DNA of 64,000 nt from a virus. Below the pieces are notes generated by a model, which did not search any database, was not told the DNA's origin, and worked only from the letters and a program-made list of their open reading frames with translations. The position numbers and the translations under genes were made by a program. Below are positions 55 through 23,253 of the stretch, one piece after another; the stretch's first letter is position 1, and every line of letters starts with the position of its first letter. Where the stretch lies: the IMG/VR virus record IMGVR_UViG_3300020215_000004; one strand, written 5' to 3'.

Positions 55-2337
55 ATGCTGGAAGAACTATTGCAATGGGACGGCAATATCGCCGAACTCT
101 TCCAGGACAGCGAGGAAGGCAAGCGAAAGCTCAATGAGATCGGCGCGCTCGTCGTGCGCGAATACGAATTCGACAAGTCGTCGCGCAAGGACTGGGAAGC
201 GAGCGCCAGAACCGCGCTAGAGACGGCGGGCCAGAAGAAGGGCGAGAAGAAGACCTATCCCTTCGACGGCGCGGCCGATGTGCGCTTTCCGCTGCTGACG
301 ACGGCGTCCATTCAATTCGCAGCCCGAGCCTATCCGAACATCGTCCGCGGCGATGAAGTGGTGGCGGTCAAGATCGCGGGTGAAGACGCCGACAGCGCCA
401 AAGCGGAGCGCGCCGAACGCGTTGCGGCCTTCGCCAACGATCAGATTATCTATCAGTGCCCTGAGTGGGAGATTGGCACAGACCAGCTCCTGCATCAGCT
501 TCCCATTACTGGCGCGGGCTTTCGCAAGGTGTATTGGGACGAGAGCCTGAAGCGCCCGCGCTTTGACTATGCGCCAGCGCTGAAGGTCATCTTGCCGATC
601 GACGCGCCGTCCATCGAGATGAGCCCGCGTGTTTCGCACGAACTCGACGTGTACCCCTACGACTACGAGAAGAAGGTCGGGGCGGGGACTTGGCTCAAGT
701 GCGATTTGCGGCGCGACACCGCCGACAGCCAAAAGCAGGTGCTGTTCATCGAACAGTGCCGCTATCTCGACATGGACGAGGACGGGCTTTCCGAGCCGTA
801 CCTCGTCACAGTGCATAAGGACTCCGGCGCGGTCGTGCGCATCGATCCGGCGTTTGGTCTCGATGATGTGAAGCGCTATCCGCCATCGGACGACGGGACG
901 CCCGGCAAGATCTACTGCATCGAGCGCCTGCTGCCCTGGGTGGACTATTGCTTCCTGCCAGACCCTGAGGGCGGGGCCTATGGCATTGGCTTCGGGAAGC
1001 TCTTGGAGGCCATCTCCGACACGGTCAACACGTTGCTCAATCAGATGATTGACGCGGGTCACCTGGCCAACACCAATACCGGCTTCATCGGCGCCGGCTT
1101 TAAGACCCGCGGCGGCACGCTCACGCTCGAGCCCAACGCGTTCAAGATGCTGGAGGGCGTCGCCAATGTGCGCGAGGCCATTCACCGGCTGGAGTTTCCA
1201 GGGCCGAACGCGGTTGCGTTCAATCTGATCGATATGTTGCTTGGCGCCGCCAAGGACATCACCGCCATCAAGGACGTGCTCACGGGCGAGATGCCCGGCG
1301 GCCAGCACGTAGCCGAAGGCACGGTCATGGCCATGATCGAGCAGGGCCTTCAGGTCTTCACATCGATCTACAAGCGCATCTACCGCTCCATGCGGCGCGA
1401 GTTCGAGCTGCAGTGCCGGCTGAACGCGCGCTACCTCGATCCTGCCGACTATCAGAAGTTTTTGGATGCGCGGCCCAAGCCCGCTCCTCAGGCGCAGAAT
1501 GCGCCGCCCCTCGATCCGCGCTTGCAAATCGGCGCCAATGGCGGCCCGCCGCTTACGCCCCAGGACATGGGCGCGGGCATGCCTATGGATGGCGCAGGCT
1601 TGCTGCCCGATGCGATGGCCGCTCCTGGCATGCCAATGCCGCAGCAAGCCGCGCCGGCAATGGGCGCGCCTCCTATGGCGCAGGGCGGTGCGGTCGTGCC
1701 GTTTCCCGTGCAACAGCAGATGGCCCCGCCGCCAGACCCGCGCGTGGATTTCAACCCCGACGACCTCGACATTCGCCCCGTGGCCGATCCGACCGCCATC
1801 ACCGACATGCAGCGCATGGCCAAGGCGCAGTTCAAGTTGCAGTTCCTGAACGATCCAGCCGTCAACCGCGTGAAGGTGCTACAGAGCGTGTGGAAGGACG
1901 CGCGCATCGCCAACGTCGAAGAATACATCGTCGAACGCAATCCTGCTCTGGAACAACAAGCCCAGATCGACACGGCGCAGAAGATGGCGACGGTCAAACA
2001 AACTGAGGCCGACGCGAATCTCAAAGTCGCGCAAGCGGAAAAGCTGCGCGGCGAGATCGCCAACGCGCCGGAAGACCGTATGCTGCGCCAGCGTGAGCTG
2101 GATCAGCGCGACCGCGAAATGAACCAAAGGGACATCGAGCTTTCCCAGAAGCGCGACCAGGCCGCCGTCGATCAGTTCAAAGCGGATATGGACGACGCCG
2201 ACCGCGAAGTGCGCTTCATCATGGAAGCCAGCCACAGGGACCGCGAACTCTCCATCGAGGACAGGAAGGTGGACGTGATGCGCGCGGCGCGCACGCAGCC
2301 ACGTGACGGCGATGGCGACGGGGAGCGGGTGGAATGA
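55..2337 (+). CDS. portal protein (putative); frame stays open to nt 1 so the true start may lie upstream of the window
   Basis: 760-aa ORF heading the morphogenesis block, where a portal is expected after terminase (terS fragment sits at the other window edge). Met/Pro/Gln-rich low-complexity insert, then charged coiled-coil tail. Call rests on size and position. Confidence 0.6.
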   Translation: MLEELLQWDGNIAELFQDSEEGKRKLNEIGALVVREYEFDKSSRKDWEASARTALETAGQKKGEKKTYPFDGAADVRFPLLTTASIQFAARAYPNIVRGDEVVAVKIAGEDADSAKAERAERVAAFANDQIIYQCPEWEIGTDQLLHQLPITGAGFRKVYWDESLKRPRFDYAPALKVILPIDAPSIEMSPRVSHELDVYPYDYEKKVGAGTWLKCDLRRDTADSQKQVLFIEQCRYLDMDEDGLSEPYLVTVHKDSGAVVRIDPAFGLDDVKRYPPSDDGTPGKIYCIERLLPWVDYCFLPDPEGGAYGIGFGKLLEAISDTVNTLLNQMIDAGHLANTNTGFIGAGFKTRGGTLTLEPNAFKMLEGVANVREAIHRLEFPGPNAVAFNLIDMLLGAAKDITAIKDVLTGEMPGGQHVAEGTVMAMIEQGLQVFTSIYKRIYRSMRREFELQCRLNARYLDPADYQKFLDARPKPAPQAQNAPPLDPRLQIGANGGPPLTPQDMGAGMPMDGAGLLPDAMAAPGMPMPQQAAPAMGAPPMAQGGAVVPFPVQQQMAPPPDPRVDFNPDDLDIRPVADPTAITDMQRMAKAQFKLQFLNDPAVNRVKVLQSVWKDARIANVEEYIVERNPALEQQAQIDTAQKMATVKQTEADANLKVAQAEKLRGEIANAPEDRMLRQRELDQRDREMNQRDIELSQKRDQAAVDQFKADMDDADREVRFIMEASHRDRELSIEDRKVDVMRAARTQPRDGDGDGERVE

Positions 2338-2825
2338 ACGCTCCACTACGCCAAGCGCTCCGCGTTATGCTGGAGGAAGCGGCGGAACGCCCGGTGATCC
2401 GCGGCTGGTCCCCCGAGCTGGCGCGTCACGTTCCGGCTGGCGAACGGTTCGTGCGCTATCTCTCCGAACGCAACAATGGCCCGATGGCGATGGGCATGGC
2501 CGGCCTCGATCCCCGCGCCGGCATGACGCTGCCGTTCGATATGGGGCTTGCTGCGCTTGGAGGAGGGGCGGGGATACTCGCGCTCAATAAGCTGGCGCTG
2601 GAGGATCGTGCGCCGCAAGGCCAGCGCGCGCAGGCGCGTGCGTTGCGCCAGCGCTTAGCCGAACTCCGCCGTCTTGAACGCGATCAAGACGCACGCGAGT
2701 GGGGCTGGATGACGGGCCTCGAGATGGCGAACGAGGACCTCTCGCGCGACGTTTCGCAGATGTATCAAGCGCCATATCAGGATGAGGCCGCGCTGACGGC
2801 ATATCGGCCAGGTGCAGCGCGTTAA
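2334..2825 (+). CDS. hypothetical virion-module protein with N-terminal LRQAL motif; C-terminus probably continues in the -1 frame to 2863
   Basis: ATGA overlap with the portal stop. N-terminus MNAPLRQALRVML. Out-of-frame LTLREALAQRMSA-stop at 2822-2863. Confidence 0.5.
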   Translation: MNAPLRQALRVMLEEAAERPVIRGWSPELARHVPAGERFVRYLSERNNGPMAMGMAGLDPRAGMTLPFDMGLAALGGGAGILALNKLALEDRAPQGQRAQARALRQRLAELRRLERDQDAREWGWMTGLEMANEDLSRDVSQMYQAPYQDEAALTAYRPGAAR

Positions 2826-2867
2826 CGCTTCGCGAAGCCTTGGCGCAAAGAATGAGCGCTTGACCTT

Positions 2868-3574: not shown

Positions 3575-3678
3575 CGACACTGCAACTCCTTGTCGTCGGT
3601 CTTCGCGAAGCGTCGCGCCAATGGTGGCGCATCTACCATCGACCGATGCTCACTGATTTTGGAGTGCTTAGACGATGA
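3571..3678 (+). CDS. small hypothetical protein (35 aa)
   Basis: Below the ORF-track cutoff. ATGA overlaps at both ends link 3335-3574 to 3675-4073. Confidence 0.25.
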   Translation: MTTLQLLVVGLREASRQWWRIYHRPMLTDFGVLRR

Positions 3679-4073
3679 CGACGCTGCGACGCTACAAGCC
3701 ATTTCCGAATGTCGAGGACTTGGATCCTGGCATTGAGCCCGGCTGGGATTTCGACGTGCTTTGTTTGCCGGCCGAACCAGAAGACCGCGTCGGCAACATC
3801 TTCCTCGCAGACGAAACCAAGGACGATGAGCGCGCGGCCGTGACGGAGTGGATGATCGTCGGCATCTCGCCAACAGCTTTCACATCGCAAGAATGGGCGG
3901 CGACGGATTTGCCGTGCCCGTTCAAGCCTGGCGATGTGGTCATCACCAAACGGTATCCTCCGGGGACGGAAGTCACTGGCCACGATGGGCGGACCTATCG
4001 ACTCCTGAAGGACAAGGAAATTCTAGCCAAGCGCATTCCGGGCAAGAGCGCGAGCGTGAAGGTGGCGGCGTGA
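3675..4073 (+). CDS. GroES/Cpn10-like small beta-barrel protein (putative)
   Basis: Pattern GNIFLADE..(loop)..WMIVGISP...KPGDVVITKRYPPGTEV..DGRTYRLLKDKEILAKR resembles the co-chaperonin signature (IxLPD ... VGxG ... VKxGDxVxF.KY.GTE ... Y.ll...DILA). Confidence 0.4.
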   Translation: MTTLRRYKPFPNVEDLDPGIEPGWDFDVLCLPAEPEDRVGNIFLADETKDDERAAVTEWMIVGISPTAFTSQEWAATDLPCPFKPGDVVITKRYPPGTEVTGHDGRTYRLLKDKEILAKRIPGKSASVKVAA

Positions 4074-4844: not shown

Positions 4845-4854
4845 CATTCCGGCC

Positions 4855-5850
4855 ATGGCAGGTCTGCGGCAAGCCCTGAGAATCCTCATAGAAGCGTCGG
4901 GTCCGCAGGCGGGCGAACTCCACGCGCTTCGCATGTTTGCAGGGCCGATGGCGAAGACCGCCGATCACGCCGCGCTGTCTCGCGCACAACAGATGGCGAG
5001 TACAGGCGCCTCTCGTGGCGACATCTGGCGCGACACGGGCTGGTTCCAAGGAGTCGATGGCAAATGGCGCTTTGAGATCGATGATAGCGGGGCGCGGCTC
5101 ACTGGCGAGCGCTACGGCAGCTTCAATGATGTGTTGGATCATCCCGAGTTGTTTGAGGCCTACCCGGCGTTGCGTGACGTAGCAGCGGCCAACGAGGGAG
5201 CCTTTCGCTCGAGCGGTTCGTTTCAAGCCGAGCACCAGAGGCCGACGGGTTGGGGCGGTGTCGGCGGAATGCGCACAGAGCGCGCACACATTGACATTCT
5301 TGGCCCAAACGAGGGGAGTCGTCGCAGTACTGCTCTACATGAGGGGCAACATGGCCTTCAGCGTACAGAAGGCTTTGCCTTAGGCGGGATGCCGCGCATG
5401 TCTGACGCGTCGCCTGATTTGCTGGCGCGTATAGCGGAACTAGAAACCACTCTACGGCAGTTGAATGAAGTGCATTGGGCATTGCGGGACCCCAATCGCA
5501 TCCGCGAGGTGTCAAAGGAATTGCGGGCACTGCAACGTTCTGCGCGGGCAGAAGGGCACGCGGTGTACGAGAAGCTTGCGGGCGAAGTTGAGGCGCGGAA
5601 CGTTCAGTCGCGTCGCAACTTCACTCCAACGCAGCGCAGACGCAGGCCTCCATGGACCACTCAAGACACTCCAGACGAGCAGCAGATCGTCCGCTTTGAC
5701 GGGGATCGCGCTGCACTGCGCGAAGCCTTGGCCAACACGCTGCGCGCGACCGCAGGATTAGGTGGGCTTGCGCTGGCCGGCGACATCACTTTGCGCGAGG
5801 CGGTGCGCCAGCGCGCGCGTCAACCCCGCGCACATAGCCTGACCGCTTAG
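4855..5850 (+). CDS. HExxH zincin-like protein carrying the LRxAL terminal motifs
   Basis: ALHEGQHGLQRTEGF contains HExxH. N-terminus MAGLRQALRILIEA. C-terminal AALREALANTLRA and ITLREAVRQRAR. Sits between portal and scaffold-like genes. Confidence 0.5.
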   Translation: MAGLRQALRILIEASGPQAGELHALRMFAGPMAKTADHAALSRAQQMASTGASRGDIWRDTGWFQGVDGKWRFEIDDSGARLTGERYGSFNDVLDHPELFEAYPALRDVAAANEGAFRSSGSFQAEHQRPTGWGGVGGMRTERAHIDILGPNEGSRRSTALHEGQHGLQRTEGFALGGMPRMSDASPDLLARIAELETTLRQLNEVHWALRDPNRIREVSKELRALQRSARAEGHAVYEKLAGEVEARNVQSRRNFTPTQRRRRPPWTTQDTPDEQQIVRFDGDRAALREALANTLRATAGLGGLALAGDITLREAVRQRARQPRAHSLTA

Positions 5851-5901
5851 TATTGCTCTTCGGCGCCACGGACGCTGGCGTTTTTGGAGAAGAGCAATCG
5901 C

Positions 5902-6939
5902 ATGACGTTGCAAGACGCAGCGGCTCAAACACCGGCGGAAGCAGGTGATGACTGGGTGTTGGCAAACGATCCCAACGCCGTCCCGCAAGACGACCCGAAC
6001 GCAGACGCGCTCGATCCCAACCTAGAACCACCCCAGCCGCAAACACCGCCTGAGCCTAGCGAAGTCGAGCGCATCGCGATCGAACTAGGCTGGACGCCTC
6101 AGGACAAGTGGCGCGGCGATCCCTCGAAATGGACGCCCGCGGCGGACTTTCTCCGCGGCACCAAAACCGTGCTGGAACGCACGAAACACGAAGCCAAGCG
6201 CTATCGGAGCGAGTTTCAAACGCTGGCTCAGCGCATGGCCCAGCTCGAGAAAGGTCAGACCTCCATCCAGCAGATGCGGGCCGAGGAGCTGAACGAGCAG
6301 TACGAGCAGGCCAAGTTCAACGCGGCCAAGGAAGGCAATCAGGAACTCTACGCCAAGCTCGTGAAAGAGCAGGCCGAGACCCTTGCCAAGGTGCGGCCGG
6401 CGCCGCAACAGCAGCAGACGCCGCAAGAGGTTGACGTGTACGCTGAAGCAGAGGCGATGCTTCAGGACCCGGCGGTCGTTCGGCTTATCAATGAAAACCC
6501 GATCATCCTGGAAAGTGATGATGCGTGGAATTACGCACAAACGGTTGCGAAAGAGGCGCGTGATCGCGGCGCGACGCACGTTCAGGCGCTTAAAGCCGTG
6601 AGTGACGCGCTCCAATGGGCGTTTCCGCAAGCGTACGCCTCTCCTCAGACCCCGCAAAACGGCAATGGAGCGGGCCAGCACCACGCGCAAAACCAGCGGC
6701 GCGCGCAGAACGGACAATTCGTTCCGCAGAACCAGCAGCCGCAGCGCCGTCCGGCGCCGCCGATCGCCGGCGCGCAACGCACATCGGCCAATGGCGCGCC
6801 AGCGACGGCGGTCGATCGCCTGCCAGCCGACGCCAAGGCGTTTCTCGACGCCAAGATGAAGAGCGGCGAAGTCAAGGACGGCGATCGCTGGGCGCGCGTC
6901 TATCTCGGTGAAAAAGTACCAGTCGTAGGAGCGGCTTAA
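5902..6939 (+). CDS. scaffolding-like protein (putative)
   Basis: GGAG upstream of ATG 5902. Gln/Ala/Glu/Pro-rich, predicted coiled coil, located between portal and capsid genes. Confidence 0.45.
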   Translation: MTLQDAAAQTPAEAGDDWVLANDPNAVPQDDPNADALDPNLEPPQPQTPPEPSEVERIAIELGWTPQDKWRGDPSKWTPAADFLRGTKTVLERTKHEAKRYRSEFQTLAQRMAQLEKGQTSIQQMRAEELNEQYEQAKFNAAKEGNQELYAKLVKEQAETLAKVRPAPQQQQTPQEVDVYAEAEAMLQDPAVVRLINENPIILESDDAWNYAQTVAKEARDRGATHVQALKAVSDALQWAFPQAYASPQTPQNGNGAGQHHAQNQRRAQNGQFVPQNQQPQRRPAPPIAGAQRTSANGAPATAVDRLPADAKAFLDAKMKSGEVKDGDRWARVYLGEKVPVVGAA

Positions 6940-8296: not shown

Positions 8297-9208
8297 ATGG
8301 CTGTCGAAACTCGCAGCTCACACCCGAGCCTTCTGTGGCCCGGCGTTTATGACACTTTCGGTGAAGCCTACAAGGACAAGCCGGAATATTTCCGCCAGAT
8401 CTTCTCGGATCACAAGTCCGACAAGCATCTCGAGATCACGACCGAACACAGCTTCTATGGCCTCGCGCCGGAGAAGTCGGAAGGCTCGTCGATCCAGTAC
8501 GATGAAAGCCGCGAAGGCTTCAAATCGACGTTCCAGCACGTCACCTACGGGCTTGGCTACATCGTCACGCGCGAGGAACTGGAAGACAATCTCTATGAGA
8601 AAGTCTCCAGCGCCCGCGCTTCGGAACTCGCCCGCTCCATGCGCGCGACCAAGGAGACGGTGCACGCGAACATCCTCAACCGCGCCTTCAACTCGTCCTA
8701 TCTGGGCGGTGACGGCGTGGTGATGTGCTCGACCGCGCACCCGACCCGTTCGGGCAACCAGTCGAACCGCCTCGCGACCGACGCCGACCTCTCGGAAGCG
8801 TCGATCGAAGACGCGGTGAAGATTGCCGTCAACATGAAGAACAACCGCGGTATCCGCATTCAAGTGATGCCGCGCAAGCTGGTTGTTCCGGTAAACGAGA
8901 TGTTCAACGCCGCGCGCTACGTGAACTCCACGCTGCGCTCCGGCACTGGCAACAACGACATCAACGCCATCAACTCGCTCGATGTCCTGCCCGAAGGCAT
9001 CATGGTCTATCCGTACCTCACGGACGACGACGCCTGGTTCATCCTCACCGACCTGAAGAACGGCCTGAAGAGCTTCGACCGCCGACCGGTCGATTTCGAC
9101 AAGGACGAAGATTTCGGCACCGAGAACGCGCGCGCGAAGTCCACTATGCGCTTCAAGCCTGGCTGGGACGACTTCCGTTGCATCATCGGCACGCAGGGTG
9201 CCGGGTAA
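8297..9208 (+). CDS. major capsid protein
   Basis: 303 aa with strong SD. Position and sequence character are typical of HK97-fold coat proteins (e.g. GLGYIVTREELEDNLY, DADLSEASIEDAV, FDKDEDFGTENARAKSTMRF). Confidence 0.7.
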   Translation: MAVETRSSHPSLLWPGVYDTFGEAYKDKPEYFRQIFSDHKSDKHLEITTEHSFYGLAPEKSEGSSIQYDESREGFKSTFQHVTYGLGYIVTREELEDNLYEKVSSARASELARSMRATKETVHANILNRAFNSSYLGGDGVVMCSTAHPTRSGNQSNRLATDADLSEASIEDAVKIAVNMKNNRGIRIQVMPRKLVVPVNEMFNAARYVNSTLRSGTGNNDINAINSLDVLPEGIMVYPYLTDDDAWFILTDLKNGLKSFDRRPVDFDKDEDFGTENARAKSTMRFKPGWDDFRCIIGTQGAG

Positions 9209-9973: not shown

Positions 9974-10207
9974 ATGGCGGGCGCCTGGGCCGCGTGCGAT
10001 CGCTGCGACTTCCGCGTCCGCCATGCAGAGTGCAGAACGGAATGGAGCGGCGCGTTCGTGTGCCCCAAGTGCTACGATCCGCGACCAGCTTGGCTCGACC
10101 CGCCCGTCATTGATCCGCTTGAGGGCGCGCCGCTGCCGAACGCGCGGCTGCAGAGAACGCCGATCTATCTCGACGACGACAACCCCGTAACGGCTGACGA
10201 TCTCTGA
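9974..10207 (+). CDS. small zinc-ribbon protein
   Basis: CDRCDF...CPKC four-Cys arrangement. SD present. Coupled to the adaptor gene. Confidence 0.5.
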   Translation: MAGAWAACDRCDFRVRHAECRTEWSGAFVCPKCYDPRPAWLDPPVIDPLEGAPLPNARLQRTPIYLDDDNPVTADDL

Positions 10208-11349
10208 TGGCTCTTTCGGGCACGATCACCTTTGCCAGAACGGCGCAGCAAATCTGCGACGCTGCGCTGCGCAAGATCGGCGTGCTTGGAGAAGGGGAGA
10301 CTTCCTCCGGCAATCAGTACACCGATGCCGAAGAAGCCCTGAACCTCATGCTCCGCACCTGGAGCATGGAAGGGCCGAACCTTTGGACCGACGCGGAGCA
10401 GACCGTGCCGCTGGTGTCAGGGCTTGCCACCTACACGCTCAGCCCCAGACCGCGGCAAGTCTACACCGTGCGCTGGTGCAACGCCGTAGTGACGAACCGT
10501 GCGCTCTATGCGCGCGACTGGACGCAGAGCGCGTGGACAAAGTCCAATATGACGACGGCGCTTAGTCAAACCGGGGTCGATAACGTCGCATCAAGCGCTA
10601 CGCTACTGACGGCTTCGGCCGGAAACGCAACCGCACTGCAAAGCGTGACGCGGGCCGAAGCGGACTGGGACTTCGGCGTCTATATGAAACGCGTCACCGG
10701 CACGGGCGCGATCTCTGTTACGCTGAACGGCGGCACGGCCTGGACGGCGGTCACGGACGACATCAATTCCGACACTTGGACGCAAGTCGGCCTCTCTCTC
10801 GACGATGTGACCAACCCGCAGTTCGGCGTGCGCATTACCACGTCAGGCGATGCGGTGGCGGTCGATTATGCGCTGGCTTCGCTCGACGGCATTTCGCCCA
10901 CAGCGTTCGAGCCGATCCTCACCACAACCGCCAATGTGTCGCGCTACGATGAAGGCCGTCCACTCGGCGAGTGGGGCAGGCAGGACTACGAGAATGCGCC
11001 GATCAAGGACTCGACGGGCGATCCCACCATCTACGTGATCGATCGTCTGCGCTCGTCCACGACGATTACGCTCTGGCCCATCCCACAGTTTTCCTCCGGC
11101 GTGCAGGCGCTGCGCATCGGTTATGAGCGCGTTTGGGAAGATGTGACCGCGCCGGGGCAAGACATCGACGTGCCCCAGGAATGGTACGAGACGGTGATCT
11201 TCGGCTTGGCTGCCCGCTTAGCCGACGACTACCAGTTGAACGGGCCGCATGTTGAACGCGTCAGGCAGCGCGCGGTGCAGCTCTATCAGCTCGCGATGAC
11301 AAACGACCGGCGCGGCGACGTGCGCGTGCGCATCGGGCGGGCGCGGTGA
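10207..11349 (+). CDS. head-to-tail adaptor, P22 gp4-like N-terminal domain with an inserted domain
   Basis: N-terminus ICDAALRKIGVLGEGETSS..DAEEALNLMLRTWSMEG matches the gp4 tail-accessory-factor pattern (AALRKLGV...D..DDLEAMMAEW). Confidence 0.55.
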   Translation: MALSGTITFARTAQQICDAALRKIGVLGEGETSSGNQYTDAEEALNLMLRTWSMEGPNLWTDAEQTVPLVSGLATYTLSPRPRQVYTVRWCNAVVTNRALYARDWTQSAWTKSNMTTALSQTGVDNVASSATLLTASAGNATALQSVTRAEADWDFGVYMKRVTGTGAISVTLNGGTAWTAVTDDINSDTWTQVGLSLDDVTNPQFGVRITTSGDAVAVDYALASLDGISPTAFEPILTTTANVSRYDEGRPLGEWGRQDYENAPIKDSTGDPTIYVIDRLRSSTTITLWPIPQFSSGVQALRIGYERVWEDVTAPGQDIDVPQEWYETVIFGLAARLADDYQLNGPHVERVRQRAVQLYQLAMTNDRRGDVRVRIGRAR

Positions 11350-12438: not shown

Positions 12439-13262
12439 TGGCGATCGGAACGGGGCTTGCCATTCTGGGGGCGGCTGGCATTGGCGCAGCGGCGTCCATG
12501 TCGGCGGCTAAGTCGCAATCGAAGGCCGCGCGCGAGGCGTCGGCTGCGGCGCGCGATGCGGCCAATCAGGAAATTCAGCTCCAGCGGGAAGCGCGCGACG
12601 AAGCGCGCAAGATTTTCACGCCATACAGCCAGGAAGGCTCGGCGGCGCGGCGCATGTACAATGCGGCTATGGGAATTGCGCCGGCGGCTGGCACGAGCGC
12701 GGGCGCTGGCGTCGCCGGCGCCGATACGCTGGGGGCTGCGCGCGCGGCATACGATGCAGGATTTGACGCTTCCCCATACTGGCGCGATGCCCAGTACGGG
12801 GCGGGCGAAGCCATGAACGCGCTCATGTCCACAAACGCTGCGCTGGGAAGGGGCGGCAGCGTCAATTCCGGCAAGGCGCTTCGGGCCACGCAAGACATTC
12901 AGACCGGCTATCGCGGCCAGGCCACGCAGAACTATCTGGCGTCGCTCGCTGGCATCTCGGACACGGGGCTGGTCGCGGATTCCGGCATCGCATCAGGCGG
13001 GCAGAACTACGCCAATATGAGCGGCAACGCGCTTCGCCAAGCGGCGGCCTTGCAGGGTCAGTATGGCCTCGCGGGCGCTGCGGCGATGGGCCAAGGCTAC
13101 GCCAACGCGGCGGGATTCTTGGGCTACGGGCTCGGCAATTATCGCCCTGGCGGCCAGAGCTATTTCTCCTACACGCCGCCGGCCCTAAGTCCGAACCTGC
13201 CTACAGGCGGCGCGCCGCTCTCGCCACTCGTCACCATTCCGCGCTTTACGCTGGGGGGCTGA
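12438..13262 (+). CDS. internal virion / ejection-type protein (putative)
   Basis: N-terminal TM-like segment (GLAILGAAGIGAAASM), then Ala/Gly/Gln-rich sequence. Coupled start. Confidence 0.45.
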   Translation: MAIGTGLAILGAAGIGAAASMSAAKSQSKAAREASAAARDAANQEIQLQREARDEARKIFTPYSQEGSAARRMYNAAMGIAPAAGTSAGAGVAGADTLGAARAAYDAGFDASPYWRDAQYGAGEAMNALMSTNAALGRGGSVNSGKALRATQDIQTGYRGQATQNYLASLAGISDTGLVADSGIASGGQNYANMSGNALRQAAALQGQYGLAGAAAMGQGYANAAGFLGYGLGNYRPGGQSYFSYTPPALSPNLPTGGAPLSPLVTIPRFTLGG

Positions 13263-14794
13263 TGGCGGAGATTTTTCGCTCCTTCGCGGAAGGGTTGTCT
13301 ACCGGCGCCGCTCAGCGCGATGATCGCGATCGCCGAAGCGCGCTCGATGAAGCGCGCCGCCTCTACGGCGCCGACAATTACGAGGGCGCCGAACAGGCGG
13401 CGCTTGCCTATAGCCCCGAACTTGCCGGCACGTTCAGCGCGCTGTCGGAGGCGCGCCGCAACCGCAACACGCGGGGCGCCGTCTCGGAGGCGATGCAGGG
13501 GCTTGATCCCAACGCCGCGCCGGACGCGCGTTTGCAAGCAGGCGCCACGGCAGCGCTTGAGGCGGGCGACACAGATCAATGGCTAGCGTTCCAGCAGGCG
13601 GCCACGCAGATGAGCGCCCAAGAGCGACAAGTCGCGGGAGAGCGCGCGCAGTTTATCGGCTCGGCTGCGGCCAGCCTGTTGAGCGTTCCCGTCGAGCAGC
13701 GCGCCGAGCAGGCTCGCGCGCTTCTGGCCGCTTCGCCTTATGCGAACGATGCGCAGATACTGCAAATGATCGACGACGCGCCTGAGCTCACCGACGAGGC
13801 GCTGAACGCGGCTGCGCGCAGCACTATGACCGCGGCGGAGATTTTGGGCTTCGATCGCCAGCAAGAGCAATTCGACCAACAGATTGCCCTTCAGCGCGCC
13901 AATGCCTTCGGTCCTCGCTTGAATGCGCCGCAAGTTCGCGCCTTCGGCAACGATTATGAGCGCGGCCTGCGACAAATCACCGACACGCTCGGCCCCCAAA
14001 TTATGAACGCCATGCCGTGGGCCACGCGCGTGGCGCAAGGCGGGCTCGTGCCTGAGGGCGTGTCGCGGGATTCTGCTCTCATCAACGACCAGGGCATGCT
14101 CCGCGCGGTGGCCCGCTTGCAAACCGGCGTCGGCGTGCTGACCGAAGGCGAAGTCCGCGACACGATCGGCAACGATGTCTTCAGCCAGATGCAGCGTCTG
14201 GGCGCCGACTTCCGGCTGACCACACCGCTCACGGAATCGAAGCGACAGGCGTTGGCCGCGCTCGTACAAACGGGCGTGACGAGGGCGTCAAATCAGGCCT
14301 GGAATTATCGCCAGAGTGCGCTTGATGAGTACCGCTCGCTCAGCGGCGGCCAAGACCCTGTCGGCTGGCAATTGCCGTCCATCGCGCATCCGGAGGACTT
14401 CGCCGCGCTCAACGCCGCAGAAGGCATGGCAGGCACGAATGGCGCGCCGGCTCTGACGCCGAACGCTATCCGCATTGCACCATCCGGCCGGCGCTATCAG
14501 TACATGGGGCCAGGCAACTGGTTGCCTGTCGCAGAGGGTGATGTGGAAGGCTATCAGGCTGGGCGTGAACAGCGCATTGCGCGCGGCGGATCGCCCACCG
14601 CGCCGAGCGCCTCGCAATCTGGCGGCTGGCGTCCTGGCCAGCCTGTGCCGCAAGCGGCGATCGAACGCGTGCGCTCCAATCCGGCGCTGCTGAATGAGTT
14701 CAAGCGCACGTTCAATCTATCTGATGAAGAGGCACGCCGTCTCACGGGCTTGGGTCAGAACGCGCGGCCGGATGGCCCGATGAGAAGGGGCTGA
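13262..14794 (+). CDS. internal virion / ejection-type protein (putative)
   Basis: 510 aa with ATGA coupling. Ala/Gln/Arg-rich helical composition. Lies downstream of the adaptor. Confidence 0.45.
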   Translation: MAEIFRSFAEGLSTGAAQRDDRDRRSALDEARRLYGADNYEGAEQAALAYSPELAGTFSALSEARRNRNTRGAVSEAMQGLDPNAAPDARLQAGATAALEAGDTDQWLAFQQAATQMSAQERQVAGERAQFIGSAAASLLSVPVEQRAEQARALLAASPYANDAQILQMIDDAPELTDEALNAAARSTMTAAEILGFDRQQEQFDQQIALQRANAFGPRLNAPQVRAFGNDYERGLRQITDTLGPQIMNAMPWATRVAQGGLVPEGVSRDSALINDQGMLRAVARLQTGVGVLTEGEVRDTIGNDVFSQMQRLGADFRLTTPLTESKRQALAALVQTGVTRASNQAWNYRQSALDEYRSLSGGQDPVGWQLPSIAHPEDFAALNAAEGMAGTNGAPALTPNAIRIAPSGRRYQYMGPGNWLPVAEGDVEGYQAGREQRIARGGSPTAPSASQSGGWRPGQPVPQAAIERVRSNPALLNEFKRTFNLSDEEARRLTGLGQNARPDGPMRRG

Positions 14795-14795
14795 T

Positions 14796-17099
14796 GTGGG
14801 CGCGTTCGACGACCTCATTGCCCCGGCGCCCCAGCGCGGCGGAGCGTTTGACGACCTGATTGCAGGCGGGACGCCGCAGTCGTTCAGCTCAAGCGAACCA
14901 TCGCGCTTGCAAGCCTTCGGCTATAGCGCTGCGGATGCCGCAAGTCTCGGTTTCGGCGATGAAGGCGCTGGCGTACTCGCTGGCGTGGGCGCCGTGCTCG
15001 GCGGGCGCGATTTTGCGTTGGCGTACCGCACAAGAGTCGATGCGGCGCGCCAGCGGCTCGAGGAGGCGCGTGCGCGGCATCCGATTAGTTCGGCTGCGGG
15101 AGCGCTCACGGGGGCAGGCGCAACCTTCCTGGTGCCTGGCGGGGCGGCGGCAACTGGCGCACGGCTTGGCCTCGGCGGCGTGGCCGCTGCGGGGCGCGCA
15201 GCGCAAGGCTTGGTGACAGGCGAGCGTCTACTGCCATATGGAAGCGCGCTCTTACGAGAGGCGGCGGGCCGAGGCGGGCGCGCGCTAGGTGCGCAGTCGC
15301 TGCTTGGCGCGGGTACTGGCGCAGCTTTCGGCGCTGCTTACGGCGCTGGTTCGGCGAATGAGAATGACAGGCTCCAGGGCGCCCTCTCTGGCGGTGCGTA
15401 CGGCGCTGCGCTTGGCGCGGTGGGGCCAGCCGCGTTCCAATTACTTGGAAACGCGGGTCGTATCGCGTATCAAAATCCTGTGCTGCGCACAGCCACAGGT
15501 GCGGCGGCGGGCGGCGGCGTTGGTTATTTCACTGGAGAGCCAGGAGATCGCGAACAGAACGCGCTCCGTGGCGCAGCATTTGGCGCAGGCGTGGGCGCGT
15601 TTTCCCGTCCGGCGCTCACCGCCGCGCGTCAAGCCTTCGCCAATCCGCTCGGCTACGCCAACCAAACCAGCATGGCGGGCGTCGTGCCACCCCCCCTTGG
15701 CGGCAGCGGCGGATCTGCTAAGCCCAATGTGCCGAAAGGCGTCGTGAGCGCGGTGGACCGCTTGCTTGGGCGTCAGCGCTCCGATGTTGAAAGCCTCGCA
15801 AGAAGCATTGAGACAGCGCGCGCCGAGCCGATGGGGCGCACGCTTGCCGACCTCGGCGGCGAACAATTCCTGAGCAAGGTTGACGCGCTCGCGCAACTGC
15901 CGGGACAAACCGGTCCGCGCGCCGCCGCGCTTGCTGAAGCACGCGTGCGCGACCTGCCTGGCCAGATTACCGGCGAACTGCAGTCCAGGCTTGGCGTCAG
16001 CCAGTCTCCGACACAAGCGCTCAACTCCTTGGCGGACGAGTATCGCCTCGTCTCGCGCGAACTCTATGAGCCGCTTCTACGCCAACCTGTGGCGCCACAA
16101 GCATTGGCGCGCGTTGAACCGATCCTCCAACGCTTGCCGGAAAGCGTTTTGAACCGCGCCAACCGCGTCATGGACGATCTTGCCCGCATCGATGGGATCG
16201 AGGTATCCGCCATGAGCGGCGCGCAACGTCTGCACTATCTCAAGATGGCGCTCGACGATGCGATCCAGGGCATGGAGCGCGTCGAGGGCCTTGGCGCGGC
16301 TCAGCGCGCAGGTTTGCGCCGTCTTAAGGGCGAGTTCCTGGAAGCCGTCGAGGGCGATCCGGCGCGCGGCATAGAGCCGATCATTCCCGGCTATCGCGAA
16401 GCACGCATGCGCTGGGGCGGCTTGAAGGACGCCGAGGAAGCGATCGATCTGGGCCGCAAGGCGCTGAGCCAGCGCCCGGAAGAAGTGCGCGAGATCATGG
16501 CGCGCATGACGCCATTTGAGCGCCAGCATTTCCAGATCGCCGCGGCCGACGAAATGATCCGCAAGGTGATGCGTGCTTCAGGCGAGGTGGGCCATCGTAA
16601 TGCCGCCAACCCGCTCAACAGCACCGAACTACAGAACGTCGTGCGCGAAATCTTCGATGATGCCGGCGAGGCGGAAGCCTTCCTGCGTATGCTAAACGAG
16701 CGCAACCAGCTCGCCCGCAACGCTACGTCCTGGATCGGCAACTCCGCCACAGCGCGCCGCGCAGCGCAGGCGGGCGATCAATTTCTAGCTGCGATGGCTG
16801 ATGCAGGCTTGACGGGAGCGTCGGGCAACCCTGGGGCGGCCGTAAGTCAAGCTGGCCGCAGCGCGCTCAACGCTCTCCGGGGCCGCTTCTTCGAGCAACA
16901 GAACGACGAACTAGGCAACGCACTGTTGCGCGTCGTGGACGAGGGCACCACGGAAGACCGCGCGTTTATTCGCGAACTCATGCGCGAGCTGCGCAAACGC
17001 GAGCGGGCGCGGGCGTCACGTGCGGAATCTGCGGGGCGTGATGCAGCTCTGAATGTCGTCGGCGTCGATACTGCGCGGGACGCCTATCAGCCATATTAG
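14796..17099 (+). CDS. large internal virion / ejection-type protein (putative)
   Basis: 767 aa. Tandem GAFDDLIA peptide at the N-terminus, long Gly/Ala-rich TM-like stretches, then a helical C-terminal half. Confidence 0.45.
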   Translation: MGAFDDLIAPAPQRGGAFDDLIAGGTPQSFSSSEPSRLQAFGYSAADAASLGFGDEGAGVLAGVGAVLGGRDFALAYRTRVDAARQRLEEARARHPISSAAGALTGAGATFLVPGGAAATGARLGLGGVAAAGRAAQGLVTGERLLPYGSALLREAAGRGGRALGAQSLLGAGTGAAFGAAYGAGSANENDRLQGALSGGAYGAALGAVGPAAFQLLGNAGRIAYQNPVLRTATGAAAGGGVGYFTGEPGDREQNALRGAAFGAGVGAFSRPALTAARQAFANPLGYANQTSMAGVVPPPLGGSGGSAKPNVPKGVVSAVDRLLGRQRSDVESLARSIETARAEPMGRTLADLGGEQFLSKVDALAQLPGQTGPRAAALAEARVRDLPGQITGELQSRLGVSQSPTQALNSLADEYRLVSRELYEPLLRQPVAPQALARVEPILQRLPESVLNRANRVMDDLARIDGIEVSAMSGAQRLHYLKMALDDAIQGMERVEGLGAAQRAGLRRLKGEFLEAVEGDPARGIEPIIPGYREARMRWGGLKDAEEAIDLGRKALSQRPEEVREIMARMTPFERQHFQIAAADEMIRKVMRASGEVGHRNAANPLNSTELQNVVREIFDDAGEAEAFLRMLNERNQLARNATSWIGNSATARRAAQAGDQFLAAMADAGLTGASGNPGAAVSQAGRSALNALRGRFFEQQNDELGNALLRVVDEGTTEDRAFIRELMRELRKRERARASRAESAGRDAALNVVGVDTARDAYQPY

Positions 17100-17691: not shown

Positions 17692-17717
17692 CCTCGCCCG
17701 GTATGTGCCGGCCGAGG
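17692..17717. terminator. hairpin between convergent genes (possible bidirectional terminator)
   Basis: CCTCGCCCGG-TATGTG-CCGGCCGAGG, a 10-bp stem with one mismatch. No clear U-tract. Confidence 0.3.
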
Positions 17718-17745
17718 CGCGTAGTCTTGGCGCTCTCGAAAGCCA

Positions 17746-19082: not shown

Positions 19083-19117
19083 GCCCGGATTTTAGGCGAG
19101 CGGGCCCGTTGGCGGGG

Positions 19118-19417
19118 TTAGGAGATGATGACCCGATCCTGAACGCGCCGCCAGTTTGCCGACCCATCCCAGAAAACCAACGTCGCTCCTCCGGTCTCGT
19201 TCGAGCAGAGCGCGATGGCTGGGCCGTCCGGGGTGATGGCGTTGAGTTCGGCAACGGTCTTGGACTTGATCGGCAGGTAATCGGCCGTCTCGCCGCCGGT
19301 ACGATCGATCAAGTCGTTGAGCCGCTCGAGCGCGTCGCGCGCCAAACTCAGCAACCTGCTGACGAATGGCTTTGACGGATCGAAATAAACAACCGCGCGC
19401 GTGGTGATGATGCTCAT
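19118..19417 (-). CDS. small tail-associated protein
   Basis: 99 aa, ATGA-coupled to the ParB-GNAT ORF, directly upstream of the fibre. N-terminus MSIITTR resembles the tailspike N-terminus MSIITRR. Confidence 0.45.
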   Translation of the reverse strand: MSIITTRAVVYFDPSKPFVSRLLSLARDALERLNDLIDRTGGETADYLPIKSKTVAELNAITPDGPAIALCSNETGGATLVFWDGSANWRRVQDRVIIS

Positions 19418-20751
19418 GCGGACATGCGCTGCGCGAGCGCCTCCCTCAGCGAGAGGGCGCCGGCAGGGAGCCCTATTGCGAGCGCCGCAAGGCCACCGCT
19501 GCCGTTAAGACCGTTGGGAGCGGGCGGATTTTTGTCGAAGTAAAGCGATGCGTCGTAGGCGTCGATGCTCTCGGCGCCGCGCGCTTGGGCGGCGGCGAGC
19601 CGGTGATGCCCATCAATGATGTCATAGCCGCCGCGCTTGTTCCGGCGCACGATGATCGGGTCGTGATCTGGGTTCGCGACATACTCGTCCACCCAGAGCT
19701 GTTCGGGCGCCGTGTGATCCGTTCGCCGGATTTGGCCGAGCGGGACTGAACGCCTCGGCATCGGTTGCGTCGCAAGGCCAGTTTCGTCGAGGCGGCTGAG
19801 ATTGACTCGCGCCCGGCGCAGGGCGCCGATGACAAGACTGGCCGGCCCGCCGCCCGGCCCAAACCCGCCCTCATCCGCCAAGTCTTGCAGGCTCGGTCCG
19901 AACTGTCCCCCGCCTCCCGCTCCTCCGTCAGGCAATGCGGGAGGGCGTGGTTCAGTGGCGACGCGGAAGCGTCCAAACGGCAACGGCTCGACAGTGTAGC
20001 CGCGCCGCTCCAGGGCCGCGTAAATGTTGCGCGCGTCCCCTGAGAGTCCCGTTCCGCTTTCCACCCAGGGCACGCCGTTCGCACGAGCGTCGGCAAGCAT
20101 TTGCTCGTAAGCGCGGATGCCCAAGCCCTTACCACGCATCTCCTCTGGCAAGTATGATCCCATGACGTGCCAGCTATTCGGGTCCACCGGCTCCGGCCCA
20201 GGCCGTCTCTGGTAAGAAAGCGGCGCTACGCCATCCACACGCGAATGAACGGTATCGCCGCGCTCGAAAAGCCCGGTCCCGAACTGTCCCCCGCCCGCAT
20301 CTCCCGCGTCGAGCCGTTCTGGACGCCCTGTGAACTGATCCAGGTCCACCGTTTCTATGTCGCGTTGTCCGCGAAGGCGCGCAGCTTCCACACGATGGCG
20401 TCCGTCCACGAGCGCGCCGGCGCGCGTAAGAACGGGCGGGATCGGCGTCTCCCGCGCGGCGAACTCAGCGGCCAGTTCAGGCTGCTCCAAAAACTGCGGA
20501 TTGCGTGAGAGGATGTCGTCGATGGCTTGGCGGCCGACTTGCACGGGGCCGTCTTCGTAACCGCGCGGACCCCAGCGGCTGAGGTCGATGCGAACAGGCT
20601 CCGGCAGTTCGTCGAACGAAACGGAGCGCGGGCCAAAATCCGGAAACTCCCCGCTGACGCGCTCCGCAAGCGCCTGGCGCAATGACGGCGCGCGCTCGGG
20701 GCCGCGCGTAGCCCCGCCCATCAGCGCTAGGAGAGCGCGCCTGAGGCTCAT
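19414..20751 (-). CDS. ParB/Srx-like - GNAT - ParB/Srx-like three-domain protein with LRxAL termini
   Basis: ALVDGRHRVEAARLRG and YDIIDGHHRLAAAQARG (ParB-type DGxHR). Central MRGKGLGIRAYEQML (GNAT motif A). Termini MSLRRALLAL / SLRQALAERV and LSLREALAQRMSA. Confidence 0.6.
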   Translation of the reverse strand: MSLRRALLALMGGATRGPERAPSLRQALAERVSGEFPDFGPRSVSFDELPEPVRIDLSRWGPRGYEDGPVQVGRQAIDDILSRNPQFLEQPELAAEFAARETPIPPVLTRAGALVDGRHRVEAARLRGQRDIETVDLDQFTGRPERLDAGDAGGGQFGTGLFERGDTVHSRVDGVAPLSYQRRPGPEPVDPNSWHVMGSYLPEEMRGKGLGIRAYEQMLADARANGVPWVESGTGLSGDARNIYAALERRGYTVEPLPFGRFRVATEPRPPALPDGGAGGGGQFGPSLQDLADEGGFGPGGGPASLVIGALRRARVNLSRLDETGLATQPMPRRSVPLGQIRRTDHTAPEQLWVDEYVANPDHDPIIVRRNKRGGYDIIDGHHRLAAAQARGAESIDAYDASLYFDKNPPAPNGLNGSGGLAALAIGLPAGALSLREALAQRMSA

Positions 20752-22178
20752 TTCACAATCTCGTTCGCCCAGACGCCTGAGAAGGCAAAGCCAACCGGAT
20801 CTGGGATGCGGATTTTCACCAGCAAACCGTCAGCGGCGTTGGCGAGGCCAAGCCGATGCACCGTTGGGCGTACATTGTAGTGGCCCGCCGCGCCCAAGCT
20901 CACTTGCCGCTCGACACCAAGCTGCACGAGACTGTCTATGGTCCCGCCATCACGGTAGAAGGTGATGTAGGCTTTCGGAGCCGATCCCGTTCCAGAGAGC
21001 GGTTGGCCGAATGTTTTGATATCCAGCGTAATGCTCGAGATGGGCATGGGCTCGGAAACGGCGATGTGCGCCATGATGATGCGCTCGATCGGCGAGCCGT
21101 CATCGGTGTATTTGTCGTTGTCCCAAGTGTAGATCGTGTCGTCGTCGCTCGCGGCAACGACGTGCCGGCCGAAGAAGCGAGCGTAGTGTGCGATGTCGAA
21201 ACGTTCTTCGCCCATGGCCGTGCGCCGATGCCAGCGGCGCGTGAGAGCGTCGAACACATAGGCTTGGCCGTCCGGCAGCCGGCACACGAAATACTGATGG
21301 CTGCCGTCTCCATAAGCGAAGCACTGCACAGCCGAACTCTCCGGCTCGCCGAACTCCTGCAACGCAGCTTCCAGGTCGCGGTTAACGACGCGCTGAGGCA
21401 CATAGCCGTTGAGTTCGTAAACCGCGCGATCATCGCCGACGAACATGGCGTAGCTGTCGAGCTTGGCCCAGGCGTCGCGGCCGACAATGCCGCGGTTGAT
21501 GATGATCGATGGCAGCGTGTCGAAAGCATCGGCGTCCGATCCGCCCACGGCGCGCCATGGCTGTGTTGAGTCCGCGCCGAAGTGAAAGATGTCGCCGCCG
21601 ATCTCGGCTTGCGCGCGAATCTCGTCCGGATAGCGGGCCGAGGCGGCAAAGCCGGTCGCCGGCCAGTTCGTTGCATCTCCCACTGCGCTCCAGTCGAACG
21701 TGTCCGATCCCTGTTCGCTGGTCAGGATGCGGTCGGCGAGCGAGGCCAGCGTGTAGGCGTCCGAAGGAAAGTCCGCATCGACGTTAGTCGTGAGCGAAGA
21801 GCCGTCCCAAACGTAAAGCGTGCCCGATGAGAGGATGACGAGATTGGCGCCCAGCCGGTCCATAAGCACGCGGCCGGTGCCGGCGATCGTCCCGCGCGAT
21901 GTTGCGGTCCAGGTTTCATTGATGGAATAGAGCGTGTTGCCGGCGACGACGAACAGAAGGCCGCTTTGCACGCCGGGACGTGAGAACACGCCTCGTATGA
22001 GGCTGCCCGCGGCCGGCGTGACGCGCGCCGTCATGCCTTGCGTCGGCACGATCACGAATGGGCTTTGCTTGCCAGCGCCTTCGGCTTGTGGCTCGAGCGT
22101 GACGTTCTTCAGCACCATGGGCACAAGGCCCTTGGCGGAGCGGTCGTCCGAGGTCATGGCCAGTGGGAAGTAGGTCAT
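20748..22178 (-). CDS. tail hub protein, P22 gp10-like (tail accessory factor)
   Basis: 476 aa, the same size class as gp10. Repeated beta-propeller-like blades. Partner of the gp4-like adaptor. Translationally coupled on both sides. Confidence 0.5.
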   Translation of the reverse strand: MTYFPLAMTSDDRSAKGLVPMVLKNVTLEPQAEGAGKQSPFVIVPTQGMTARVTPAAGSLIRGVFSRPGVQSGLLFVVAGNTLYSINETWTATSRGTIAGTGRVLMDRLGANLVILSSGTLYVWDGSSLTTNVDADFPSDAYTLASLADRILTSEQGSDTFDWSAVGDATNWPATGFAASARYPDEIRAQAEIGGDIFHFGADSTQPWRAVGGSDADAFDTLPSIIINRGIVGRDAWAKLDSYAMFVGDDRAVYELNGYVPQRVVNRDLEAALQEFGEPESSAVQCFAYGDGSHQYFVCRLPDGQAYVFDALTRRWHRRTAMGEERFDIAHYARFFGRHVVAASDDDTIYTWDNDKYTDDGSPIERIIMAHIAVSEPMPISSITLDIKTFGQPLSGTGSAPKAYITFYRDGGTIDSLVQLGVERQVSLGAAGHYNVRPTVHRLGLANAADGLLVKIRIPDPVGFAFSGVWANEIVK

Positions 22179-22747
22179 CAGGCCGCCCTCGCTCGATTTG
22201 CAAGAGCCTCGCGAAGCGTCATGCCAGCCGCGCCGCCGCCTCCAAGCATTAGAAGCAACTGCCTGATCTCGACTGGGTCGTTGATTACAAACGTGCCGTC
22301 CTTGCGCCGCATGAAGTTCTGCGGCCCCATGTCATAGAAGTAATTAGGCGAACCTGGCGGCAGAGTTTCCTTAAGGTGCTCGTCGAGACTGCGCATAGTC
22401 TCCAGCAACGGCGCGCGTTGTGGATCATCGTCAGCGAGCCCCGTTAGGAAGAACTCTCCATTTTCCCGCCCTATCCGTGCGCGTGTATCGTTCGGCTCTA
22501 ATTTGTCCGCGCTAAACCGAAGGAGCGCGCCGGCGCGCTCCATCTCGCTCGGATTTGGCAAGTGACGCGCAGCAGGCAAACCTTGCGCATGCTGCGTGCG
22601 AGCCCAGCGCAAAAATGCTTCCGTAACCGGGTTAGGCGCCATCTCCACAACCACGCGTTCGGGGTCGATGGCGTCTGCAAACACCGTCTTGGAGCGCCCG
22701 CGCCCTATCTCAATGAGCGCGCGACGAAGGGCGGCGGACGCGCTCAT
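22178..22747 (-). CDS. minimal protein-kinase-like fold protein with LRxAL termini
   Basis: IGRGRSKTVF (Gly-loop-like). YDMGPQN-x12-ND reproduces the D-x4-N-x12-D catalytic/Mg-binding spacing of kinases. Termini AALRRALIEIG and MTLREALANRARAA. Confidence 0.4.
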   Translation of the reverse strand: MSASAALRRALIEIGRGRSKTVFADAIDPERVVVEMAPNPVTEAFLRWARTQHAQGLPAARHLPNPSEMERAGALLRFSADKLEPNDTRARIGRENGEFFLTGLADDDPQRAPLLETMRSLDEHLKETLPPGSPNYFYDMGPQNFMRRKDGTFVINDPVEIRQLLLMLGGGGAAGMTLREALANRARAA

Positions 22748-23253
22748 GCGCCCATCCGTTCAGCAAGGATTTCCCTGAGCGTGATCGCGCCAACGGGCGC
22801 GGCCACACCAAGGCCAGCCAACAGATCGGCGCTCTCTAGCCGCGCCGGATCGAACGCTGCGAAGATTGAACGGATGTCGGCGGGATTTTCCACCCGCACG
22901 TCGCTGTCGCGAAAGCCTGTAGGAATGGCTTTGTCGCGCCGCACGAACACCGGAATGACGTTCGCGCCCTCAGCGCCGCGGACACCGTTCTCCATTTCGG
23001 CAATATCCGACGCCCTTCTGGCGTCCCGCGTGAGATAGACGCCTGGCCCCCAGCCGGCGTGACGCGCAGGCTCGAACGCGTCGAACTCGCTCCTTGTGCC
23101 ATGGTAGAAAACGTCGTCGGTGTCGAAACCTTGCTCGCGAGCACGGGAGAGCCGTGCGCCGTTTTCATCCAGAGCGCCAAAGAGCGAACGCGGCCAGCGG
23201 CCCGCCGTGGCCATCAGCCTTTCAGCCAAAGCTCTACGCAGGGCCGCACTCAT
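22744..23253 (-). CDS. H-Y-E type ADP-ribosyltransferase-like protein with LRxAL termini
   Basis: FYHGT ... GVYLTRD ... VRVENP fits the H / Y / E triad context of PARP and polyvalent-protein ARTs. Termini AALRRALAERLMA and ITLREILAERMGA. Confidence 0.4.
   Translation of the reverse strand: MSAALRRALAERLMATAGRWPRSLFGALDENGARLSRAREQGFDTDDVFYHGTRSEFDAFEPARHAGWGPGVYLTRDARRASDIAEMENGVRGAEGANVIPVFVRRDKAIPTGFRDSDVRVENPADIRSIFAAFDPARLESADLLAGLGVAAPVGAITLREILAERMGA

Follow-up and report, generated by a model that had tools for sequence, protein, structure and literature searches.

Tagged Proteins of the Virion Module

The DNA analyzed here, referred to below as the window, is a stretch of 64,000 nucleotides from the IMG/VR virus record IMGVR_UViG_3300020215_000004. 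It has a G+C content of about 62% and represents most of a P22-like podovirus. Six open reading frames (ORFs) of its virion module carry, mostly at the two ends of the chain, a peptide of about 13 residues with the consensus [S/T/A]-L-R-x-A-L-x-x-R-[M/L]. We call this peptide the tag, and its copies N or C tags according to the end at which they lie. The coordinates of the copies are those of 13-residue windows.

Three of the carriers are encoded on the plus strand. The first (2334-2825) is a protein of 163 amino acids with a domain without annotation; its start overlaps the stop of the portal gene (55-2337) and its N tag, APLRQALRVMLEE, lies at 2340-2378. The second (4855-5850) joins LPD23 (PF18838; 89 bits against a gathering cut-off of 27) to an HExxH peptidase-like core with HEGQH at 5338-5352. 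Residues H162, E163, and H166 are invariant in 66 homologs, giving the HExxH pattern of a zincin-like metallopeptidase, and the protein bears three tags, one at the N end (4858-4896) and two toward the C end (5710-5748 and 5785-5823). The third (11405-12025) adjoins the ejection-protein genes and consists of an N tag (11423-11461), a Gly-rich hydrophobic stretch, a second, internal tag (11717-11755), and a helical C-terminal domain. It is kept in the relatives whose contigs reach that position.

The other three carriers are on the minus strand. ORF 19414-20751 encodes ParB-like, acetyltransferase-like, and ParB-like domains, with two N tags (20713-20751 and 20650-20688) and one C tag (19417-19455). 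ORF 22178-22747 encodes 189 amino acids with a domain without annotation at residues ~13-170, an N tag (22697-22735), and, after a Gly-rich stretch, a C tag (22184-22222). ORF 22744-23253 matches ART-PolyVal (PF18760; 37.3 bits against a gathering cut-off of 31.2); it starts with an N tag (23209-23247) and ends with DLLAG, a Gly/Ala-rich stretch, and a C tag (22747-22785). Judged by domain content, the carriers are split equivalents of phage polyvalent-protein domains. As a set they fall outside the definition of polyvalent proteins (2-15 domains), since five of the six have a single recognizable domain and only 19414-20751 has several.

A preliminary description of this DNA, made from the sequence alone, had listed HExxH, ART-like, kinase-like, and ParB-GNAT-ParB ORFs among the carriers. 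Its "kinase-like" label for 22178-22747 found no supporting match, and for its ParB-GNAT-ParB layout of 19414-20751 the ParB calls come from sub-threshold Pfam matches together with PHROG matches and the acetyltransferase-like call from composition. The claim that every enzyme-like ORF of the region is tagged did not hold, as the acetyltransferase-like ORF 12022-12438 (phrog_1249) and the Cpn10-like gene 3675-4073 (plus strand) are untagged.

Frequency, Placement, and Conservation of the Tag

In all, we found 13 in-frame copies in the six ORFs and one out-of-frame copy at 2822-2860 (plus strand), 14 in total. Every copy listed in the preliminary description was recovered at its place, but the carriers are six, not seven, with the out-of-frame copy in addition. 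The pattern LR[RQE]AL occurred 17 times in the six-frame translation, compared with 2.9 +/- 1.6 (maximum 9) in 200 dinucleotide-preserving shuffles. In the 98-ORF gene set, the wider pattern LR[RQE][AI][LV] gave 13 matches, every one in the six virion-module ORFs, and none in the 10,503 amino acids of non-virion ORFs, while residue-shuffled proteomes held on average 0.66 copies and at most 5 (2000 shuffles). The two results that could have spoken against the tag, an equal frequency in non-virion ORFs or in shuffled translations, were thus not obtained. A chain end lies within 30 amino acids of 11 of the 13 copies (0.23 expected), and the seven N-end copies in the six ORFs are each at most 24 residues from the start. 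A profile built from the copies recovered all 13 at 10.3-18 bits, with the next best match in the proteome at 2.5 bits; not even weak matches to it were obtained in the window's portal, scaffold-like, capsid, gp4-like, gp10-like, or ejection proteins.

The peptide LREALAQRMSA is encoded at both 2828-2860 and 19417-19449, and a recount confirmed the earlier observation that 9 of its 11 codons differ between the two places. Selection therefore acts on the peptide. At the level of sequence, these comparisons demonstrate that the tag is real and under peptide-level selection. A twin-arginine (Tat) signal was ruled out as an identity for the N tags; RR is present in some of them only, and the next residues are charged.

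The out-of-frame copy, LTLREALAQRMSA, matches the C tag perfectly, and a stop comes directly after it (2822-2863, plus strand). It lies in the -1 frame and overlaps the end of ORF 2334-2825, which in its own frame has the N tag only; read out of frame, this end gives ALTLREALAQRMSA and then the stop. The sole ortholog found, P0136 on contig L019 (70% identity), has the N tag variant MSTLRAALQAI and stops at the same codon; of the out-of-frame tag, only about the initial 12 nt are left in its -1 frame, a decayed remnant with 9 of these 12 identical. The out-of-frame tag could be a relic of an in-frame tag or could be reached by a programmed -1 shift; we found neither an X XXY YYZ slippery site at 2334-2825 nor a start codon in the frame of the tag. 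A one-off sequencing error is unlikely, because records of this protein exist in three sources (JGI, Logan, and ENA). A frameshift fusion of adjacent carriers is also unlikely, because in the frame concerned a stop lies five codons upstream of the start of the second gene.

Predicted Structure of the Tagged Ends

AlphaFold2 models placed the LPD23-HExxH core (residues 27-283) at a predicted local distance difference test score (pLDDT) above 90. The N tag of the same protein (4855-5850) was predicted as a helix at residues 2-15 (pLDDT 73) followed by a segment below 50, and its C tags as helices at residues 285-299 and 313-322 (pLDDT ~60), separated by segments below 50. The ART carrier gave the same pattern of helical tags and low-confidence flanks. 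In these models the tags clearly lie outside the predicted folded cores. A Foldseek search of the confident LPD23-HExxH model against the PDB returned nothing with an E-value below 0.2; this widespread virion-protein domain therefore appears to be without a solved relative.

Gly/Ala-rich stretches precede the C tags, and stretch and tag together could form a membrane or channel element, a hairpin that would be inserted into the ejection channel or, after ejection, the membrane, or would dock there. A parallel is the C end of P22 gp7 (…AIGGGIGLLGSLF), a Gly/Ala-rich segment that adopts a V-shaped hairpin within the outer-membrane pore (bioRxiv 10.64898/2026.09.03.749273). The tags are, however, highly charged, the hydrophobic stretches are only ~10-12 residues long, and the N tags have no hydrophobic partner, so we regard this explanation as very doubtful.

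Standalone ART-PolyVal proteins from many lineages (22744-23253 and P0122-P0134) share FDP-x-K/R-x-x-S-x-D-L-L-A-G and then a Gly/Ala-rich stretch. Beyond this stretch, and only there, their C ends vary between lineages.

Tags in Related Phages

Relatives were fetched from IMG/VR and metagenomes with the gp10-like gene as the anchor. Chain-end tags were present in relatives L001-L005, L008, L011, L012, L014, L015, L018, and L025, and in proteins P0002-P0018, P0122-P0126, and P0139. The sets of cargo genes vary between these genomes, and at ~70% identity of the gp10-like protein the tags are kept on the ends of homologous and non-homologous cargo ORFs alike. Close homologs of the LPD23 and ART carriers retain both tags. 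Homologous phages thus conserve the positions of the motif, as the preliminary description had required of a genuine signal. Contig L012 has three tandem cargo ORFs, each tagged at both ends, with the N tags LIEALAARLG, LLREALAARLA, and VEHLLAERLA and the C tags LLREVLRDRE, TLREVLRDQY, and TLRQALRDRS. The residue after LRExL is Ala in five of six window copies and in none of 15 copies from relatives (Fisher p = 3e-4). The likeness of tags within one genome, across cargo that is not orthologous, suggests a shared partner.

The partner could also be another tag. N and C tags would then bind or bundle with each other, maybe around 11405-12025, and a head-to-tail string or network of non-covalently chained cargo would take the place of a covalent polyvalent protein and be packaged and ejected as a unit. 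Nearly every carrier is tagged at both ends, as a chain or network needs and unlike simple targeting; the N and C tags have nearly the same consensus, fused equivalents exist in other phages, and the two-tag protein with its Gly-rich spacer is conserved in the relatives whose contigs cover its position. On the other hand, a 13-residue helix alone would give a weak affinity, and the basic-N/acidic-C complementarity that had been proposed for head-to-tail docking fails in the relatives, whose N tags have R, Q, D, or E at that place. Since tagging at both ends is unusual for targeting, chaining stays the main rival of the targeting role proposed below, although we judge it unlikely.

Alanine is the last residue of 16 of the 22 C-tagged proteins, compared with 21 of the 94 other ORFs of the window (Fisher p = 1.4e-5, in a comparison whose orthologs are not mutually independent). 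C-terminal Ala degrons exist, and the Ala ends of the C-tagged proteins recall them. A host protease or chaperone might accordingly read the tags, for example as degrons that clear unpackaged toxic enzymes, and the type of tag could then follow the host and not the virion. This proposal matches no defined degron and leaves the tagging of both ends unexplained. Moreover, the tags are uniform across the cargo of a genome and differ between close relatives, which fits a phage partner better. We consider a host-factor signal improbable.

Chain Ends and Domain Edges

A HMMER search with 22178-22747 found its core (residues ~13-170) elsewhere at 47-72% identity, in two settings. In the first, the domain stands alone and has other tags. 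P0137 starts with MGLLARAAQL, MGLLARAAQLGRGRSKTV…, and P0142 starts with MGLLSR… and has the C end …GGGGALGNGLLSRTRQRAGA; the end of P0142 (…VINDPVAAIALMGGGGALGNGLLSRTRQRAGA) aligns position by position with the window end of 22178-22747 (…VINDPVEIRQLLLMLGGGGAAGMTLREALANRARAA). In the second setting, the domain is internal in the fused proteins P0138, P0139, P0140, and P0143-P0145, and there it has no LRxAL tag. P0139, which is of the same lineage as the window, begins with the tags MSGAGLIEMLAARLGG…APALREVLASAM, continues with an ART-like domain and a 22178-22747-type domain, and ends with …NALQRALRERMERE. Its domain joints read RTGPDAG… and RTAPDGGPVQAG…, and its LRxAL-type tags are found at the two ends of the whole chain only. 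Comparison of the standalone and internal homologs therefore indicates that the tag belongs to the chain end and the phage lineage and not to the domain. In the ART and LPD23 families, too, tags are swapped between lineages.

The domains of multi-domain cargo in relatives are joined by a different motif, R-T-x-P-D/N-A/G-G…Q-A/G-G (L003 7548-9362, L004 2099-3922, L005 8866-10059, L011 8076-9128, and L014 1316-2668, as well as P0138 and P0139). The window has this junction motif in the form GGGQFG at 20278-20295 and 19897-19914 (minus strand), within 19414-20751 and without a tag there. This motif may mark places of recombination or of cleavage. The domains between the junction motifs are shuffled from genome to genome.

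The LPD23-HExxH unit was also found inside giant proteins of cultured phages, namely H66 gp60 (3787 aa), which is a virion protein by mass spectrometry according to its GenBank note, and AF gp16 (2213 aa). The motif profile found no copy in either of them, and the tag is therefore not a universal polyvalent linker.

These results bear on the suggestion that the tags are linkers left from the fission of one giant protein and have no present function. The carriers are indeed polyvalent-protein domains that are fused in other phages. In the fused relatives, however, another motif joins the domains and LRxAL stands at chain ends only, no tag is present in the giant proteins, a domain has tags when it stands alone but not when it is internal, and the peptide is kept while its codons diverge. 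As a feature of chain end and lineage, the tag refutes the leftover-linker reading, which we find hardly credible.

In P0140 (3300 aa), the peptide QDELFAGPER is found on both sides of the 22178-22747-type domain (~2066-2080 and ~2225-2240). By their sequence, the flanks look like a linker that was duplicated when the domain was inserted into it.

Other lineages have short terminal peptides of another type. Five virion-module ORFs of the SU10-like contig L010 begin with [M/V]GLL (starts at 9866, 10483, 12454, 14772, and 15488), and on the P22-like contig L021 an LPD23 protein and an unannotated 632-aa ORF both begin with GLL (10001 and 13711). On L010, three ORFs end in G-A-Y-G-V/M. Among 102 LPD23 homologs (P0019-P0120), GLL was present within the first 12 residues in 10 and within the last 14 in 10, where composition predicts ~0.5 for the N-terminal window and a similar number for the C-terminal one. 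In the LPD23+ART fusion P0040, GLL is present near the start, in between the domains, and at the end.

A Putative Address Label for Virion Cargo

We infer that the tag serves as an address label, specific to the phage lineage, by which cargo is loaded into the virion and co-ejected, a reading that we hold with roughly even confidence. Each cargo polypeptide would be translated separately with a tag at its N end and its C end, and the tag would act as a docking helix that recruits unrelated cargo to one common partner during virion assembly. The partner might be an ejection-protein, portal-barrel, or scaffold complex, or a tag-bearing protein such as 11405-12025; the ejection-protein-like genes at 12306-17099 encode candidates. 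Recruited cargo would be packaged and then ejected with the DNA, and the tag might, speculatively, be trimmed later by the tag-bearing HExxH protein or a host peptidase. The targeting reading is supported because unrelated cargo proteins share only the tag, the tag follows the lineage, the helix lies outside the core, and the context is one of virion genes, the carriers being located among gp4-like, gp10-like, and ejection-protein genes.

Several points weigh against it. The ejection-protein homologs of the window, which are presumably packaged, are untagged, and known targeting systems use one tag and not one per end. The tags have a mean hydrophobic moment of 0.39, where the background is 0.29; since this is only moderately higher, we do not call the tags strongly amphipathic. 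Finally, a difference in tag between lineages probably goes along with a difference in host, so that the tag could match a host factor and not a part of the virion.

The preliminary description suggested a signal for capsid targeting, maturation cleavage, or both, comparable to that of phage T4. The targeting half of this idea is supported by our results, while the specific T4 analogy is not, as our searches turned up no prohead protease and the capsid, scaffold-like, and portal proteins do not contain the motif. No ORF of the head module gave a protease family match, and the matches to protease-annotated PHROGs were to capsid-protease fusion profiles, of which they covered the capsid portion only. 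If there is cleavage, the enzyme would have to be either the tagged HExxH carrier or, as with P22 gp7, a host peptidase. P22 gp7 has a 20-residue N-terminal leader (MLYAFTLGRKLRGEEPSYPE), which is removed before assembly by the host zinc peptidase OpdA (bioRxiv 10.64898/2026.09.03.749273).

One may go further and regard the tags as propeptides or recognition sites, cut by the 4855-5850 HExxH protein or a host peptidase, so that the cargo becomes active or is released. Processing of polyvalent proteins by zincin-like peptidases was predicted by Iyer et al. 2017 (PMC5512222), and the protein with the invariant HExxH is itself the one with three tags; the C tags contain L-R-E, and the maturation of gp7 is a precedent. 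Against this stand the lack of a prohead protease and of the motif in head proteins and the absence of any Foldseek match supporting a peptidase fold. Cutting ~13 residues off both ends would also have no evident purpose unless the tag acts first, and the fused proteins, where cutting matters most, have another junction motif. Processing sites are thus a distinctly unlikely explanation of the tags.

The address-label reading can be widened, tentatively, to chain-end "zip codes" that are general for the injected cargo of short-tailed phages. Each lineage would have its own code (LRxAL, or the GLL type in SU10-like and other P22-like phages). A chain would require the code at either end for being strung non-covalently to other chains, in a string that is loaded and threaded out like one giant polyvalent protein. 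We see this as possible but doubtful. If it holds, sequence alone would reveal the injected proteome, and two short added tags could allow foreign proteins to be delivered.

Comparison with Known Systems

Terminal peptides directing cargo into capsids are already known. In phage T4, a short terminal peptide directs unrelated injected proteins, the internal proteins IpI-III and Alt, into the head (PMC12373910). The T4 capsid targeting sequence resembles the tag in being a short peptide common to unrelated proteins, the packaging of which we infer for the present carriers. It differs in being N-terminal only and in being cut by gp21 at L/I-x-E, while in this P22-like podovirus both ends are tagged and a prohead protease is lacking.

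Encapsulin cargo normally has one cargo-loading peptide, of the GSL type, for an HK97-fold shell. These peptides, described in part in PMC8346489, are similar in that a terminal peptide follows a flexible Gly/Ala/Pro-rich linker on unrelated cargo. The window has the same layout, with tag-adjacent segments of pLDDT below 50, Gly/Ala-rich stretches before the C tags, and HK97-fold-type matches of the capsid protein. In contrast to the single GSL-type peptide of encapsulins, the consensus here is LRxAL and both ends carry it.

The C-terminal coat-binding helix-turn-helix of the P22 scaffolding protein is a case in which a short terminal helix suffices for entry into the procapsid. This element (PMC9962691) is like the tag insofar as a short terminal helical element brings a protein into procapsids. 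It has no sequence similarity to the tag, and the scaffold-like protein 5884-6939 is without LRxAL.

Within the gp7 leader, TLGRKLRG loosely resembles TLREALRG, and the leader is also loosely like the C tag TLREALRGR. The Gly-rich C end of P22 gene 7 (L020, 9369-10058) contains GLL, like GLL-type C tags; this region is the outer-membrane hairpin of the 2026 preprint. Both resemblances are weak and may be coincidence. Furthermore, gp7 is a single protein cut by OpdA, and the gp7-like protein of the window has no tag.

In polyvalent proteins, which occur in phages and conjugative elements, a single polypeptide combines 2-15 disparate domains (Iyer et al. 2017, PMC5512222). The carriers share with them the repertoire of LPD23 with zincin-like HExxH, ART-PolyVal, and ParB, as well as the virion-gene context, but here the domains are mostly separate polypeptides with end tags. 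Neither linkers nor terminal motifs are described in that paper, where "linker" appears 0 times, and full-text literature searches likewise gave no description of such end tags. New here would be their occurrence in P22-like podoviruses, on split polyvalent domains, at both chain ends, and with lineage-specific codes.

Injected proteins include many counter-defence and host-takeover enzymes, and only in T4-like and a few other phages can they be recognized by a sequence rule. If the tag is an address label, the injected proteins of uncultured podoviruses could be listed from sequence alone, and the interconversion of split and fused polyvalent forms would be explained. The tag would then also offer a simple handle for loading foreign proteins into P22-like particles.

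Other Genes of the Phage and the Search for Relatives

The phage was called temperate because an integrase (36575-37690) and an O-antigen acetylase (26012-27958) are present. Its tail machine is P22-like, with a gp4-like adaptor, a gp10-like hub, and a gp7-like ejection protein. The adaptor (10207-11349) was assigned from phrog_637 and a weak, sub-threshold PF11650 match (E 0.0099), and the hub (20748-22178, minus strand, untagged and between carrier genes) from phrog_578, with PF11134 in relatives. The major capsid protein (8297-9208) matches Phage_capsid_4 and Mu gpT. The scaffold-like gene (5884-6939) was named from its position and composition and has no family match. Tail fibre or spike genes are present in the window as well. 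The Cpn10/GroES-like gene lies between the portal and scaffold-like genes, and this is kept in relatives (L001 6931-7338 and L019 1750-2148).

Identical proteins were also found on a metagenomic contig of 67,260 bases. A megablast search of positions 1-24000 gave no match to cultured phages, the best cultured gp10-like relative being only 27% identical, and a scan of GTDB genomes found no prophage relatives. When IMG/VR was scanned for a DNA pattern of one C-tag variant, four contigs matched; three were true relatives, and L024 was a chance match.

The untagged ejection-protein-like genes are all on the plus strand. They comprise the gp7-like gene (within 12306-13262; phrog_598), a 510-aa ORF (13262-14794), and a 767-aa ORF (14796-17099; phrog_5880). 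The N-terminal half of the last is very Gly/Ala-rich, with weak, sub-threshold glycine-zipper-like matches (NF053611), and the last residue of this protein and of its counterparts in relatives is Y.

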